From positions 1 to 64,000 of the forward strand of contig JBBRSP010000031.1 of the NCBI GenBank assembly GCA_038245295.1: a DNA stretch of 64,000 bases, in the 5' to 3' direction. The translations under genes and the position numbers were made by a program. Positions 8,752 through 53,005 of this stretch are shown piece by piece (the first letter of the stretch is position 1; every line of letters starts with the position of its first letter). The notes under the pieces are model-generated. The model saw only the letters and a program-made list of their open reading frames with translations, had not been told where the DNA came from and did no database searches. Origin of the DNA: Candidatus Binatia bacterium. GTDB taxonomy: Bacteria; Desulfobacterota; Binatia; HRBIN30.

Positions 8752-9636
8752 GTGATTTCGCCGGAGTTGCGCCAGCGGTTGCATTGGGTCCATGTCGCGA
8801 ACGTGGCAGACATCGACCTGCGCCGGTTCCCGGACGTCTTGATTGTCGGGCCGCAGCGCACCGGCACGACGTGGTTGCATGCTCACCTGCGGTTTCATCC
8901 CCAGGTCCAGCTCTCCGAGCCCAAAGAGATCTTCTTCTTCAGCCGATTGAAGCCGCTCGGCCAGCCGAAGTTCGAATCGAACGAGCTTGCCTGGTACCTC
9001 AAGTTCTTCGACGAGCCATTATGGCTGCAGGCCGCCAAGCTCGGCCGCAGTCTCTTGCACTATCGCGAGTTTTACCGACCGACGGTGCGCGGTGAAGCAA
9101 CGGCCAGTTATGCCGCCCTCGACGACGAGATCATCGCCGAGATCGTCGCGCTCAGGCCCAACATCAAGATCATTACGATGATCCGCGAGCCCATCGACCG
9201 CGCCTGGTCGCACGCCAAGAAGGATCTCGTGCGTAACAGCAAGCGTCATTTCGACGATGTGAGCGAACAAGAGTTCCAGCAGTTCTTCGCCGACCCGTAT
9301 CAGCGGCAGTGTGCTCACTACGTTGAGAACTGCGAGCGCTGGGCCAAACACCTGCAGCCCGGCAACTTGTTTGTCGGTCTTTTTGATGATGTGGCGGCGC
9401 GGCCGGAACAATTGCTGCTCGAGGTCATGCGTTTCCTCGGCGTGCGCAGCGACGCGCGCTACATCCCGGACGACGTCCGCCAGGCCGTCAACCCGACGGC
9501 TGGATCGAAGATCCCGGCCGTGCACCACGGGTTTTTGGAGCAACTCTTCGCCTCTGACCTGCAGGCGCTTTCGCGACGTTGGGGGCTGCGCTGGCCGTTG
9601 GCAGGACGGCGCCCGCCCGCCTGCCGTCTCGAGTAG
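8752..9636 (+). CDS. Sulfotransferase family protein
   Basis: IVGPQRTGTT (5'-PSB loop), PKEIFFF, GEATASY, IREPIDRAWS (3'-PB). Confidence 0.88.
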   Translation: MISPELRQRLHWVHVANVADIDLRRFPDVLIVGPQRTGTTWLHAHLRFHPQVQLSEPKEIFFFSRLKPLGQPKFESNELAWYLKFFDEPLWLQAAKLGRSLLHYREFYRPTVRGEATASYAALDDEIIAEIVALRPNIKIITMIREPIDRAWSHAKKDLVRNSKRHFDDVSEQEFQQFFADPYQRQCAHYVENCERWAKHLQPGNLFVGLFDDVAARPEQLLLEVMRFLGVRSDARYIPDDVRQAVNPTAGSKIPAVHHGFLEQLFASDLQALSRRWGLRWPLAGRRPPACRLE

Positions 9637-9673
9637 AGGCCCTCGATCGGGTTGGATGCCCTCGACTTGAGAC

Positions 9674-9996
9674 GAGTACGATCGATTGTCTCTGATTCAT
9701 CGTTTGAAACTGCGCAAACACCTCCGCCATAGCGGCGAAAGCCGGCAGCACCCAGTATTGTTGGTCTTCCACTCGAGGAGATCCCGGCTTTCGAGACTGT
9801 CGTAAAACCAAAGTGGAGCAACGTCATCCCGGTGAAAACCGGGATCTCCCCCTGCTGGAAGCCTCGAAAGCTGGCGAGATACCGGCTTTCGCCGGCATGA
9901 CGGATAGGGCTGCTCGTTTCAGATTTGGTTCCCGAGTAAATCGACACACTCTTTCGCCGGGATGACGTTGCTCCATTTCAGTTTATCGACAGTCTC
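9674..9996. mobile_element. Nested ~160-bp MITEs: older outer copy 9674-9996 interrupted by an inner copy 9793-9951
   Basis: Inner copy runs GAGACTGTCG ... TCGACACACTC with TTTC duplicated on both sides. Removing it restores ATCCCGGC-TTTC-GCCGGGAT and a 160-bp outer copy ending CGACAGTCTC. Confidence 0.8.
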
Positions 9997-10276
9997 CACT
10001 GGTGGGCCGCAGGCCTCGATAGATAGCTCTGGCATAACCATTCGCGAACGTGCTAAGGCGAGCCCCAACGCGAGAGGGCGGCTACCCACTTGCAGGGCAT
10101 TTAGACGTAGTTTGGTTTCGGCGGTTTCGGTCTTGGCACGGCCAAGGCTGCCGGAAAATGTGCATCCGAGCGGTGCGGGCGCAGGTTTGTCTCCCATGAC
10201 AAAGCGGCGGCGCATCCTTCGGCTGTAGTAGATGCCGTGTATCGGTGGGGCCCTTCGTAGAAAACGAGGGACCGAC

Positions 10277-18163
<7,887 letters not shown>

Positions 18164-24596: not shown

Positions 24597-24706
24597 TCAG
24601 CGCGGTGCTTTGTCCGCCACCCCAGGAGGGAACTGGGTACTGCGGCAGGTCAACACTCCCTCTCCCAGCCCAAACGGAGTTGCGACACCTGGGAGAGGGT
24701 CGGGGT

Positions 24707-24969
24707 CAATGTCGTCAAGTTAGCGAGGGTGAGGGCCAATGCGAAGCCTCGTCATCCCGGCGGAGGAGACTGTCGTAAAACCAAAGTGGAGCGACGTCAT
24801 CCCGGTGAAAACCGGGATCTCCCCCTGCCGGAAGCCGCGAAAGCTGGCGAGATACCGGCTTTCGCCGGTATGACGGGGGTGTTTGCGCTGCTTCAAACGA
24901 TGAATCAGAGAAAGTCGACAGACTCGGAGGCCGAGACGACGCACTTTTCTCGCTAACTTGACGACATTG
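24707..24969. mobile_element. ~99-bp MITE with perfect 21-bp TIRs (IS4-like ends) containing a nested 160-bp MITE at 24766-24925
   Basis: CAATGTCGTCAAGTTAGCGAG ... CTCGCTAACTTGACGACATTG, flanked by GGGTCGGGGT/GGGCCGGGGT (9/10 match). The inner element is flanked by GGAG/GGAG. Confidence 0.85.
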
Positions 24970-25524
24970 GGGCCGGGGTGAGGGTTCACAATCCGGATGC
25001 CATCGGCAGGCCCTTGCGGTCGAACTGTGTGCCGCGATACCCAAACATGGCGCTGCCGAAATTCGATATCGAGGCCATGGGTGGGCTGGTCATCCCGGCG
25101 CACCGCCACACGCGGAGAAGTCGCAGGGGCAATCCATTCGCGACGCGCAGATTTCCCCTGACGAGTATTATCCGGACGGCTAGAAGCCCGATCTGTTGGA
25201 GTGTTGGCCGACGGACAACCCTGTCATCCCGGCGGACAAGGTGCGGCCGGGGCTCTTCTTGCACCCAATGCGTGATACCAACGCGGCGCAAGAGCAGAAA
25301 ACGGATCACTGATGTCGACCATCGCTGAAGGGCAAGACGTGACCAACGCTTTGAAACCACAAGGAGGCCAGGGAGGTTAAATGTTTCACCGCGATCGCCA
25401 TGGGGCTGGGGATGATGATGGCGACCACTGCCATCTTCGCACAGAAGGCACCCAAGGGTCTTCGTCTACCCGGCGAAGGGCAGAGCAAAGATCAGAAGAG
25501 CGACCGATGGGAGGGTGAGTTCGG

Positions 25525-29150: not shown

Positions 29151-32100
29151 TTACGGACAACCATCGATCGCGGCGATCACGGCACGGATGATCTCCTCCG
29201 TTGTGATCGAGCCATCACCGTTCACATCACCCGCCAGACAAGCGCTGATAGGCTTCTCTTCGAGGGCGATGTTTACCATCAGGATAACCTCGTCGACGGT
29301 TACTTGACCGTTCATGCCACAGTCGCCGGGGCAGACCGGAAGTACCGTCGGCGTCGCGGTCGGGGTGGCTTCCGGCGTCGGTGTTTCCGTGGCGGTGGCG
29401 GTGGCGGTGGCCGGTGGTGTCGGAGTTTCCGTTGGCGTCACGGTGGCCGTCGGGCTTGCCTGTGTCGGTGTTTCGGTGGCGGTCTGAGTCGGGGCCTCGG
29501 TTGGCGTTTCCGTCGGTAGCTCGGTTGCTGTTGCGACGGGGACTGGTGTTTCGGTTGGCTCCGCGGTCACCGTATGCGTCGCCTCGGCGACCGGCGTCAC
29601 GGTCGGCGTTAGTTCCACCACCGGTGTTTCAGTTGGGACCGCCGTCTCCGTCGGCACCGGCGTTGCAGTGCTGGTTGGCTCCGCCGTTGGCGTCTCGGTT
29701 GGCGCGGCGGTTTCGGTCGCGGTCGGTGCGGTCGTTGGTGTGTCGGTCGCCGTCCCGGTCGCCGTGTTCTGCGGCGTCGGAGTGGCGGTCGTCGTGGCGG
29801 TTGCGACGGCGGTTGGTGTCTCCGTAACGGTGGCCGTGATTGTCGGTTCAGGCGTGGCCGTATCCGTTGCGGTTGCCGTCGGTAACGGTAGCGGCGTGTC
29901 GGTTGGTGTCAGTGTCGGCTGTGGCGTCGACGTGTCGGTCGGAATCGGCGTCGCCGTCGGGGTGTCCGTCGGGGTTTCGGTCGGCGTATCCGTCGGCGTA
30001 GCGGTATGCGTCGGGGTAGCCGTTCGTGTCGGTGTCTGCGTCGGTGTGGCGGTTTCTGTCGGTGTCGGCGACGGGCGCTGGACCGCTCCATTGGCGACCA
30101 GACGCAACGTCCTCACCGAATCTCCCGTGTTCGCGAGGTTGCCAAAGGTGGCGACTAGTTCCAGGCCGGAGAGATCCGGCGGGTTCTGAGCCAGCTCTGA
30201 ACAGGCGATCAAGGGTAGTCCCATCTCGGCGAATGGTCCGATGTTGGTGCCGTTCTGGAAGTTGGCGTTGATCACTTCGGCATTGGCGCCGCCGGTGGTG
30301 AAGTCGACGGTTTGCGGCACGCCGCGCTGCGTCGGTGTGTCATTGATCGTGCAGAAATTAGCCGCACAGGCCGACGCGCTGTGGCCGGTTGCGATGGCCG
30401 CGAGCAGGCGTGCGGAGCCTTGCGGGCCGGTGCCGCTTGTCGTCACGGCTGACGGCACCGGTGTCCGCAGGGTGCAATCCGGCGGATTGGCGCAGCCTCC
30501 TGCATCAACGAGCGTATCGACGTCGATGTTGGTCAGGCCATCGGTGCCGCAGCCGAAGGTCCCGGCAGCGGAGAGTGTCGGGCCGAAGACATCAGCGCAT
30601 GGCTTGCTGTCCGGGCAACTGGCGCTGCCGGCGAACTCGTCGTTGCATTGTTGTGAGGGCGAGCCGTCCTGGTTGTAGAGGGTTCCACCACAGGTCTTGA
30701 GATTGACGGCGCGCACGCAGCTGCAGCCATCGGCGAGATCGACCGGGTTGAACTGGGCCTGGAAGGCGCGAATAACAAACGGGCGGCTGCCGTCGGCGCT
30801 AGGTTTGCCGACGACCAGAACTTGCGAGCCATGCAGGGCCGCGGCGCTGGCGCCACCCTGCTCGTGCGACGCCAGATGGCTGTCCGGCACGAGGTTCATC
30901 GTTACTTCCGTTTCGAGGGTGCAGTTGGCGGCGCAACCATCGCCACCGACGGGTTTGCAATGGATGCAGCGGCTGCCGGGGCATTCGCTGTTGTCGGCAC
31001 ACTCGTAACCGGCTTTTGGCCCGGCTTCGCAGGCGCCGTTGCCGATGCAGAGTGAGTCGGTGGTGCAGAGATCGCCGGCGTTGAGGCCGCCGACGCAGAT
31101 GCCGCCGTCATCACATTCTTCGCCTGGGTCGAGCACAGCGTTGCGGCAGAGCAGGGGGCCGAGTGGTGTCGGCGTATTGGTTGCCGTCGCCGTGTTGGTC
31201 TGCGTGCGCGTCGGCGTGCCGGTGCGCGTGTCGGTAGCTGTGGCCGTCGCGGTCGCCGTGGCGGCGGAGGTTTCAGTCGGTGTCGAACTCTTCGTCGGTG
31301 TCGCCGAGGTGGTGAACGTCGCAGTTTGTGTGGCGCTGGGGCTCGGTGAAGCGGTCTGCGTCACCGACGCCGTGGCGCTCGGCGTGCTGGTATGTGTCGC
31401 CGTCTCGGTCGCCGTCGGAGTGGCTGTGTCGGTTGGTGTCGTCGACGCAGTCGCGGTCCGTGTCTCGGTTGAAGTGTGAGTCGGCGTCGCCGTATCCACC
31501 GGCGTCGCCGTCGGGGTGTTTGTCGGCGTCGTCGTGGCTGTGCTGGTGGCGGTATCTGTCGCAATCGGTGTGGCGCTCGGTGTGGCCGTTTCCGTCGCCG
31601 TCGGTGTCGGCGTGTGTGTTGGCGTTTCCGTATGTGTCGGTGTTTGCGTCGGCGTGTCGGTGACCGTGGCCGTCAGTGTTGGCGTATTGGTTGGCGTGTA
31701 CGTCAAAGTCGGGCTCGACGTCGGGGTGTCGGTTACCGTCGCTGTCGGCGTTGCCGTAGTTGTCGAGCTAGGCGTGAAGGTATTCGTCGCGGTATTGGTC
31801 GCGGTGCGACTTGGCGTCTGCGTTGCGGTCGACGACGGGGTCGCGGTCCCGGTTTGAGTCGGTGTGCCGATGCTCGGCGGGAAGTCGATACGTCCAATGC
31901 GGTTGGTGAAGGATTCAGTGATCCAGAAGTTCCCATCCGTCCCCGTGGCTAATCCGTAGAATCGCGGATTCGGAAATCCGGCCTTCGGTGCCACGGCGAT
32001 GGTGAACTCTGAGATGGTGTTGGGCGCGTTGACGAGGATGCGGCTCAAATGGTTGCCGCTGCCCTGCGTGTACCACAGGTTGCCGTCCGGCCCGCTGATG

Positions 32101-32906
32101 ATGATGGTCGGGTTCGTCGAGAACGTTGGCATGGTGAATTCGGTGATCGTCCCGCTTGGCGTGATGCGACCGACCTTGCCGCTCTCGAGGAACCACAGAT
32201 TGCCGTCCGTTCCTTTGGTGATGCCGGTCGGCGCGCTGCTCAAGGTTGGGATCGTAAACTCGGTGATAACCCCGGCGGTGGTCATACGCCCGATGCGGTT
32301 TCCCATCTGTTCAGTGAACCACAGGTTGCCGTCCGGGCCGGTGACGATCGAGTTCGGTTTGCTGTTGGCCGTCGGCAGGGAGACCTCGGTGATCGTATTG
32401 GGCGCGTTGACAAGGATACGCCCGATCTTGTTGCCGCCAGCCTCGGTGAACCACATGTTCCCCTCGGGACCGGCGGTGATGCCGTTGGGGAAGCTGGAAC
32501 CGGTGGGAATCGAAAATTCCGTGACTGTTCCAGATGTTGTGATGCGGCCGATCTTGCCGACCGATTGCTCGGTGAACCACAGGTTGCCGTCCGGCCCAGC
32601 GGCGATGCCGGTTGGCGTGCTACCGGCGCTCATCACCGGGTAGTTGGTGATGCTACCGGCGGTGGTGATGACACCAATGGCGTTGCCGGTGCTCTGCGCG
32701 TACCATAGATTGCCGTCCGGACCGCTGACGATTTCGCGCGGTTCGAAGGCCCCCGCGAGGGGGTACTCGGTCGCGGGTACCTGCGCGTGAGCCCGTTGAA
32801 CCCCGATCAGCGCAACGAACGAGAGCGCGATTGTGAAGAGTAGACACTGCCGATTCAGGCGAATCGGACGATGAAGACACGGATATCGGTGAGGGGAGAC
32901 GCCCAT
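29151..32906 (-). CDS. Secreted protein: Vgb-like beta-propeller, Thr/Pro linkers, Cys-rich central domain, C-terminal dockerin-like module
   Basis: About 7 G(P/T)DGN(L/M/F)W repeats, [15 protein letters not shown], and terminal [15 protein letters not shown]...[13 protein letters not shown]...GCP. The start is uncertain (32906 or 32933); the ORF extension to 33371 overlaps the MFS gene. Confidence 0.82.
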
Positions 32907-32977
32907 AGAAGAGTTGACTACTACGCCCCACATCCGGGGGTCAATATGGCAAAACGCTGTAAGTCTTAAGGATTGTT

Positions 32978-34126
32978 TCAGTGTTTCTGATTGACGAGGC
33001 GCTCGAGGCGTAGGGCGGCGGGTAGGGCGAGGGCGACGATGAGGGCCTCGACGCCGAACAGGCCGCGTGTGCCAATCCGATCGACCAGGGCGCCGGCCAT
33101 GATCAGGCCCGCCGAAGCGCCGATGCCCCAACTGATTGCTCCATAGATGGCCTGGCCGCTGGTGCTGCGTTCCGCCGGGACGAGTTGCGGCAGCAGGCGC
33201 ATCGTGGCCAGGTGAAAGGCGGCAAACGAGAAGGCGTGCCCAAGTTGCAGTAGGACGACAACTGACTCCTGGGTAGCGACGGCCGTTGCGGCCCAGCGTA
33301 CTGTCGTGATCAGCAAGGAAACGGTGATCAGGCGCGCCGGGGAGACGCGTTCGAGGATCTGCCGTCCCCAATAGAGCAAGCCGACCTCAACAATGACCGC
33401 TAGAGCCCAGGTGATTCCAGGGATGGCGTCAGAGAATCCCAGACGGCTGACGTGGAGAGCAAAGAAGCCACCCCAAGCGCCCGAGCTGACTTGCAGCAGG
33501 AGAGAGGCGGTGATGAGGGCGCGCACCGGCGGTGTCAGGAGCTTCCATGGCGCGCTGAAGCGCGTCGACATGGGTGCCTGGCCGCGCGGCAATCCGTAGA
33601 TCGGCACGAGGAGGACCAGGGCCGGGATCAACAAAAGAATCGGCACCACCTTGGCCGAGCCGAGGTGAATCAGTGGCGCGCTCACGAGCGCCGCCGCGAT
33701 GAAGCCAATCGATCCCCACATACGCAAGCGACCATAGTTGCCGCCCAGTTGGTCGAGGTGATCGAGGACGGTTGCGTCCAGCATCGGCATGATCGTGCCT
33801 TGCATTAGTCCGAGCAACCCCAGGTCGAGCAGCAGCGGCCAGAATCCGGTCAGGAACAGTAACGGGAAAAAGAAGAGGCTGCCGGCTGCCGTCGCGACCA
33901 TCATCACCGGGTGGCGAATCCGCCAGCGATCGGCAACGCTAGCCCAAGCAAGAGCCCCGACCCACCGCAGAGCCGGTTGGCAGCCAATCAGTAGGCCAAT
34001 CTCCCAGCCGCTCAAGCCGAGGTCGGACAGGAAGCGCGGGAAATACGGCGCCCACACCCCCGGGCCGAAGAGGATGACGGCATAGGCGACGATGACCGCC
34101 AAACGTGGGCGTCGATTTGATTCCAT
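32978..34126 (-). CDS. MFS transporter (HcaT/MFS_1-like)
   Basis: About 12 hydrophobic segments and [12 protein letters not shown]. Confidence 0.88.
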
Positions 34127-52749: not shown

Positions 52750-52780
52750 GATTGCTTCTCCATCCGTCATTCCGGCGAAA

Positions 52781-52939
52781 GAGACTGTCGAGTTTCTCTG
52801 CTCGCACGCTTAAAGCATACAAACAACGCCGTCATTCCGGCGAAAGCCGGAATATCCCCAGCACTTCTAAGATTCCGGCCGATGAGATCCCGGCTTTCGC
52901 CGGGATGACGTTGTGGCATCCGAGTTTATCGACAGTCTC
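52781..52939. mobile_element. 159-bp MITE with perfect 10-bp TIRs inserted in a hairpin loop
   Basis: GAGACTGTCG ... CGACAGTCTC flanked by GAAA/GAAG. The empty site is CATTCCGGC-GAAR-GCCGGAATG. Confidence 0.85.
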
Positions 52940-53005
52940 GAAGGCCGGAATGCAGTGCAGTAGGCGAGTGAGGGTAGTCTCATCGCCTTCGTTTCGACCA
53001 AGGCT

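Follow-up and report, generated by a model that had tools for sequence, protein, structure and literature searches.

The window analysed here, a stretch of 64,000 nucleotides from a Candidatus Binatia genome, raises the question of how a repeat of about 160 bp comes to lie in the loops of DNA hairpins, with one copy inside another and no gene of its own to move it. The bin under study comprises 6.6 Mb in 129 contigs, the window being contig C31. Four copies of the element had been proposed in it, at 9793-9951, 24766-24925, 52781-52939 and 9674-9996, each with two hairpins. All four are present and alignable over their full length, and both hairpins occur in every one.

Copy A (9793-9951, plus strand, 159 bp) belongs to the majority subfamily, in which the loop of the first hairpin is closed by a T-A pair. 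Its AAA end at 9793 corresponds to the right end, and its ATTT end at 9951 to the left end, of the insertion sequence (IS) described below. It carries one hairpin at 9822-9845 on the plus strand (CGTC tag, stem ATCCCGGT, loop GAAA; the T-A variant, rarely targeted) and a second, inverted with respect to the first, at 9879-9902 on the minus strand. The copy lies between TTTC at 9789-9792 and TTTC at 9952-9955, a 4-bp duplication whose left member forms the loop of the first hairpin carried by copy D, the outer element (9674-9996, minus strand). Copy D, which has a C-G closed first hairpin and is split by copy A, measures 160 bp once the inner copy and one TTTC are taken out. Its end at 9674 is degenerate, does not fit the terminal consensus of the original prediction and has neither a duplication nor a REP target.

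Copy B (24766-24925, plus strand, 160 bp) is of the T-A subfamily and is flanked by GGAG duplicates at 24762-24765 and 24926-24929. The hairpin described around it exists; what had escaped notice is that it is the dimer, collapsed into one hairpin, of a second MITE family (24707-24969, plus strand, ends CAATGTCGTCAAGTTAG). This host has a 10-bp duplication of its own at 24697-24706 and 24970-24979, identical at 9 of 10 positions, and its uninterrupted form elsewhere is 167 bp long with a full CGTC dimer. Copy C (52781-52939, minus strand, 159 bp) is a member of the C-G subfamily with divergent arms, flanked inside a CGTC hairpin by GAAA at 52777-52780 and GAAG at 52940-52943. Thus, of the 4-bp duplications claimed for three clean copies, those of TTTC and GGAG are exact and the third matches at three of four positions only. 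All window copies are intergenic: A and D follow a gene for a sulfotransferase, B follows one for an SH3-domain protein, and C lies directly upstream of an acyl-CoA dehydrogenase gene. The window also contains two very large ORFs, at 10232-18163 (plus strand, 2643 aa) and 29151-33371 (minus strand, 1406 aa), both rich in 12-bp Thr-Pro repeats; the former has five domain repeats of 555-609 bp, and the latter repeats of ~126 bp.

Genome-wide, 327 recognisable ends were detected in 140 clusters, 52 of which contain at least three ends, and the family amounts to about 150 copies. The ends are of two types, GAGACTGTCG(T/AT)AAA and GAGACTGTCGATTT. Matches to the AAA-end pattern are not due to chance, as 89 were obtained in the genome and none with the reversed control. 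Prokaryotic MITEs are recognised by a length below 500 bp, terminal inverted repeats, the lack of a transposase gene, target duplication and dispersed multicopy occurrence. The element agrees on every point, being dispersed in many copies, flanked by duplications and 159-160 bp long, with a 10-bp core inverted repeat and IS-like ends of 15-18 bp. Its length leaves no room for a transposase gene, in keeping with the non-autonomous nature predicted for it.

Exact 4-bp duplications flank 36 of the 83 complete, uninterrupted copies, and a match of at least three in four bases was seen in 55; the mean in 5000 permutations of the flanks was 12.1 and the maximum 24. None of the exact duplications reaches 5 bp. 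At least six of eight stem pairs surround the duplicated 4-mer in 28 of the 36 exact cases, as against 125 of 20000 random sites. Across the genome, exact duplication is thus more frequent than the permutation maximum, and the duplicated bases are mostly the loop of a CGTC-1 REP hairpin; 28 of the 83 complete copies lack even a three-in-four match, and these count against it. Copies are identical at a median of 82% of positions overall; to its nearest neighbour a copy is 94% identical at the median and 98.8% at best. Their sequences combine a small number of arm and spacer types in mosaic fashion. Diverged to this extent, they give no sign of present activity. The same ends wrap two other cargos in the genome, of 192-217 bp and 130-131 bp, which land in the same REP loops (C6:1573-1764, C5:75788-75979, C45:22959-23175, C8:66831-66961 and C3:394341-394470).

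The hairpins themselves belong to a described class, a point missing from the original prediction, as is the fact that other MITE families carry them too. CGTC-1 REPs are defined by a CGTC tag, an 8-bp stem beginning with AT and a 4-base loop (PMC3733652), and both the carried hairpins and most of the targets match this definition. The carried pair is inverted with the tags outward, and the loops are GAAA in 75 of 82 cases and TTTC in 80 of 82. Of 251 intact carried sites, 224 have a CTC tail instead of the usual CCA; CCA tails are found in free REPs and in REPs of the second family.

A catalogue of REPs read from the tag arm holds 548 sites, of which 180 are interrupted: 61 are hairpins of the family itself, 33 and 23 belong to two other MITE families and 63 lie elsewhere, with the provisos that composites copied as units are not independent entries and that the last class takes in remnants. 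The self-nesting noticed in the window is confirmed. Full nests in which both host halves are retained number 20, and nests occur in the first hairpin of the element itself and in hairpins of the two other MITE families. Loops that hold the element in some copies of these two families are seen empty in three uninterrupted copies of a 154-bp family and one copy of the 167-bp family, a comparison between paralogues, the 40 nearest relatives returned including no genome of the same genus. The composite of the copy B type is also found on other contigs, and a mutated end is common to two composites of 329 bp, suggesting that the element likely also hitchhikes.

A full-length IS with the same ends was to be looked for, and one was found, in relatives of the same order and not in the assembly. 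The 1727-bp IS at L189, in a same-order genome, has the left end GAGACTGTCGATTTTCTC and the right end GAGACTGTCGATAAA, which are both asymmetric ends of the MITE; these ends also match seven further full ISs. Its single ORF encodes a 531-aa protein with Pfam matches to DUF772 (24.1 bits, cut-off 23.1) and DDE_Tnp_1_6 (70.5 bits, cut-off 25.1). With NCBIfam transpos_IS1182 (NF033551) it scores 244.9 bits (E 1.8e-72), below the cut-off of 270, and probably represents a divergent IS1182 subgroup. Residues D178, D318 and E454 are invariant in nine of nine aligned proteins and probably constitute the DDE triad. The suggested IS1182/IS5 affinity is thereby narrowed to IS1182, the IS5 alternative not being needed.

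Of 301 genomes of the class, 8 encode close relatives of the L189 protein, and each of the 8 belongs to the order. Scoring of 8000 candidates places 130 proteins in the wider clade at E<=1e-30, and most of these lie on contigs of 1.7-2.3 kb. Full-length IS copies number eight (1727-1742 bp, ~1.73 kb), four with an exact 4-bp duplication, two with a three-in-four match and two with none; a hairpin can be folded at three of the four sites with an exact duplication. The duplication at L271 and L277 consists of two stem bases and part of a 3-base loop, indicating that loop duplication is not the general rule. Two further IS copies (L274, L273) adjoin CGTC REP arms at the loop. Some IS1182 members are said in a review to duplicate a loop.

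Searches of the assembly with DUF772, DDE_Tnp_1_6, NF033551 and the cognate protein returned no cognate transposase at E<=1e-40, and tblastn gave only weak matches (E of at least 0.003) from another IS1182 subgroup that lacks these ends. The window was predicted to hold no transposase, and none is present on its contig among the matches listed. Bins often omit IS-sized contigs, which may account for the absence of the donor. On viral contigs the end pattern was matched 100 times, and the sole repeated pair, of 1958 bp, has no transposase-like ORF. The end search of plasmids gave just REP-dimer fragments or chance matches, and tblastn of plasmids gave distant IS1182-annotated proteins, at no more than 30% identity among the 25 matches listed.

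A sister IS1182 clade (L223, L225; ends GAGACTGTCGAAAAA and GAGCCTGTCGAAAAA) was considered as donor and rejected on account of its symmetric ends, its 3-bp duplication and its 22% identity to the cognate protein. Members of this clade (L223, L225, L232, L233) are ~1.8 kb long, with near-symmetric ends and AAC as the preferred 3-bp target, and have short derivatives of their own in other genomes of the phylum (L211, L212, L217).

The reading that best fits these data, at a rough probability of 85%, is that of a gene-less family with IS1182 ends and REP cargo that is moved in trans and duplicates the loop at which it inserts. To the observed ends, cargo, loop duplications, nests and autonomous relatives it adds a mechanism. 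Each of about 150 elements of 160 bp has the left end of an IS1182-type insertion sequence on one side, its right end on the other, and two CGTC-1 REP hairpins in inverted orientation between them; the DDE transposase of this IS type would likely mobilise the elements in trans. This enzyme would recognise hairpins, by their structure rather than their sequence, and a cut across the 4-base loop would leave the loop duplicated.

Many copies have been rearranged since insertion. Outer REP arms flank complete copies on both sides in 25 cases and inner arms on both sides in one, a ratio to be set against the roughly equal numbers of outer/outer and inner/inner flanks that inter-copy recombination across the genome should yield. 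Outer arms on both sides together with inverted loops were found in 11 of the 83 complete copies, a configuration that resembles replacement of the dimer interior. Ends stacked at distances of 45 or 66 bp recur frequently, and the outermost duplication is often retained. Such stacked ends and mismatched flanks could stem from recombination, after insertion, between direct repeats within nests of the same orientation, or equally from adjacent deletion between two loops.

Short-read assembly of a repeat-rich metagenome bin might also have generated the nests, stacked ends and hybrid flanks. This is very unlikely. The nests keep matching inner and outer duplications, rare 4-mers included, their inner and outer copies belong to different subfamilies, and similar duplicated elements occur in many independent assemblies. 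Also, at 9200-10400, single-copy contigs of run X1 enter the outer copy from both sides with zero differences. What speaks for an artefact is that the bin consists of 129 contigs, that independent contigs, assembled from the runs that are its likely source, end within the element and none spans it, and that collapsed tandem segments of 95-120 bp would mimic stacked ends, so that assembly collapse keeps some weight for the rearranged copies. No clean joint skipping the element was seen in four runs at 9200-10400 and two runs at another stretch of 10.5 kb, which is no evidence since contigs drop rare variants.

Another possibility, judged unlikely, is that the mobile unit is the REP dimer, REPIN-like and moved by a RAYT or GIY-YIG enzyme, the IS-like ends being only its favourite landing shell. 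The genome has five matches to Y1 (IS200-type) transposases (G000:C58, C2:248626, C42, C90 and C27), and the same dimer with a homologous spacer occurs in the 154-bp elements, which have different ends and 8-bp duplications. On the other hand, the duplication lies outside the IS ends and not around the dimer, facing ends less than 140 bp apart included no cargo-free shell, and full ISs with these ends yield the same 4-bp duplication. Movement of the dimer is thus largely refuted as the means of spread, and might explain the first entry of the cargo.

The other MITE families of the genome were characterised alongside. The second has ends CAATGTCRTYAAGTTAG, which are presumably IS4-like, duplications of ~10 bp, CCCTCACCCCGACCC-type repeats as sites and a CGTC dimer as cargo; its members are the element at 24707-24969 in the window, a 167-bp copy at G000:C11:196102 and 9 more end pairs, and the copy at C28:2648 carries a different cargo. 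The third, of 154 bp, has ends GGTAGTGGGTCC, an 8-bp duplication, and a dimer and spacer homologous to the cargo of the 160-bp element, an identical cargo type in two wrappers. Copies of it were found at G000:C5:63980, C7:26074 and C13:33671, with 8 more interrupted, and its ends wrap other palindromes in G192 (L390, L394). No transposase was found beside the ends of either family in 52 order genomes; IS4-like and IS1/IS1595-like are the labels assumed here for the IS families behind the second and the third, respectively. A fourth family (134 bp, ends GAGGCTGTCTCAAAA) accounts for 79 ends in G000 (for example C10:9532 and C12:40574, and many contig ends) and consists of near-identical copies that break the assembly and are likely young. 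Its cargo is a CTTCGACAGGCTCAG dimer, and its 4-bp duplications lie in the loop of GTAG-type hairpins; in some copies the two loop copies are inverted. CGTC dimers occur within yet another inverted repeat, GGCTTTGCACAA ... TTGTGCAAAGCC, at L022 and L023 (G015) and L024 (G025).

The element was proposed to create new targets with every insertion, and this applies to part of its hairpins. First hairpins closed by C-G are interrupted in 41 of 82 cases, those closed by T-A in 2 of 78 (Fisher p 7e-13, the sites not being independent), and the second carried hairpin in 12 of 145. The T-A pair takes the place of C-G in 50 of the 83 complete copies by a compensatory change of both stem sides, and hairpins with T-A are 1.2 kcal/mol lower in folding stability. 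When all REP sites were classed by stem positions 3 and 8, interruptions were counted in 112 of 196 ATCCCGGC sites, 33 of 72 ATTCCGGC, 18 of 155 ATACCGGC and 5 of 93 ATCCCGGT. Hosts of full nests have a C-G pair in 13 cases (12 excluding one with an arm of another family), C-A in one and T-A in none.

The scarcity of insertions in T-A hairpins probably reflects a real target effect, the T-A hairpin being likely a poorer target and partly also younger; the altered hairpin of the commonest subfamily may amount to self-avoidance. Mere succession, in which T-A copies arrived last and had too little time to be targeted, is a serious possibility that we would place somewhat below even odds. In its favour, 12 of 13 full nests in C-G first hairpins contain a T-A inner copy (one could not be assigned), the main T-A group has diverged 4.2% from its own consensus (n=30) as against 5.1% for the main C-G group (n=21), and composites with stacked ends may be copied as units, which would inflate the C-G counts. 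Yet the second hairpin is interrupted no less beside a T-A-type arm (6 of 55) than beside another arm (6 of 90), and one T-A group is more diverged, at 6.9% (n=14). C-G copies lie inside hosts with a T-A-type arm in 3 cases, indicating that the subfamilies overlapped in time, and none of at least 50 T-A copies is fully nested in a T-A hairpin.

The same ends are widespread outside this genome. The left-end pattern occurs in 23 of 52 order genomes and was absent from the controls. An exact 4-bp duplication flanks 54 of 81 short elements with these ends, drawn from other genomes and from metagenomes and representing only part of the listed matches. These elements use several kinds of hairpin as sites and enclose unrelated palindromic cargos, and the CGTC dimer was the cargo in 3 of the first 37 examined, indicating that carrying its own target is the exception.

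Clustering by interior of the elements with a duplication of at least three in four bases gave 23 families, with modal lengths of 131 bp in three and 160-161 bp in four, and also of 90, 110, 140, 173, 181 and 203 bp. Between 100 and 200 bp the lengths are in phase with 10.4 bp in a post hoc analysis (R 0.61, n 14, jitter p 0.0045; free period p 0.018), and loose clustering, likewise post hoc, gave p 0.015 (n 9); under strict clustering, periodicity over 100-260 bp was not significant (p 0.12). The lengths hint weakly at steps of ~10 bp, with clusters near 131 and 161 bp. In a study of IS50, transposition reportedly depends helically on the distance between the ends.

A joint reading of these patterns would make the IS1182-clade ends a general carrier of small palindromic repeats that spreads CGTC REPs, with helical length steps and an evolved self-immunity; as a whole it is doubtful. 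In it, lengths of 131, 141, 161, 172 and 181 bp would be steps of one helical turn, since the transposase must loop short DNA, and the compensatory loop-closing pair would keep the hairpin and conceal the element's own target from the enzyme.

Several of these features have precedents. IS1272, of the IS1182 family, targets hairpins (PMC4923244). Together with TnSha1 of staphylococci, it shares with the present system an IS1182-family DDE enzyme, hairpin targets of varied sequence and tandem copies of one end (PMC4923244, PMC5678879). It differs in that it deletes or replaces the hairpin and makes no duplication, whereas insertion here duplicates 4 bp and in most copies preserves the two hairpin halves, and in that the 160-bp element contains no gene and brings along its own type of target. 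Hairpin replacement of the IS1272 type was accordingly rejected for the present element, duplication being the rule. MITEPye1 of Paracoccus yeei likewise has IS1182-like ends, 4-bp direct repeats and intergenic positions, and differs in having 1-3 copies per chromosome and in that the available text mentions no REP cargo, loop targeting or nesting (PMC11578231).

In Coxiella burnetii, QMITE2 is a 150-190-bp MITE whose REP is used as an insertion target by IS1111 (PMC5896051); there the invader is an unrelated IS, the REP is of GTAG type and the repeats are of 7-11 bp, whereas host and invader here are one family. ISRm22 and other REP-targeting ISs also insert at the REP symmetry axis, and in a third of the copies the direct repeats are hybrids, for which recombination or adjacent deletion is held responsible. 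ISRm22 itself is an autonomous IS4-family element with 6-bp repeats and no REP cargo (PMC1525189). CGTC-1 REPs as described share with those found here the tag, the 8-bp stem starting with AT, the 4-base loop and the inverted dimers; in H. neapolitanus all CGTC-1 dimers are wrapped in a 41-bp palindrome, and the paper reports CGTC repeats to be without a dedicated transposase (PMC3733652). The present repeats differ in their CTC rather than CCA tail and in a wrapper tied to a named transposase clade. A 2024 review of MITEs mentions neither IS1182 nor nesting in the part available (PMC10969869). Hairpin targeting by IS1182 elements, insertion at the REP axis, MITEs with IS1182 ends and a REP-carrying MITE as an IS target are already published. 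In a literature with few subscription journals, no report was found of an IS1182 MITE that targets itself, of a self-avoiding allele or of phased lengths.

Without self-avoidance and length phasing, both of which are suggestive, the system would be another rich case of known behaviour. It connects a large, mostly unnamed IS1182 subgroup from uncultured bacteria with a precise target rule and with gene-less carriers. It also suggests a candidate, testable way in which CGTC REPs, left without a transposase in the paper that defined them, could spread. A transposase directed to hairpin loops would possibly be useful as an insertion tool. Should the T-A effect and the stepwise lengths be borne out, these elements would constitute a natural record of a transposon avoiding its own copies and of the limits that DNA looping sets on MITE size.
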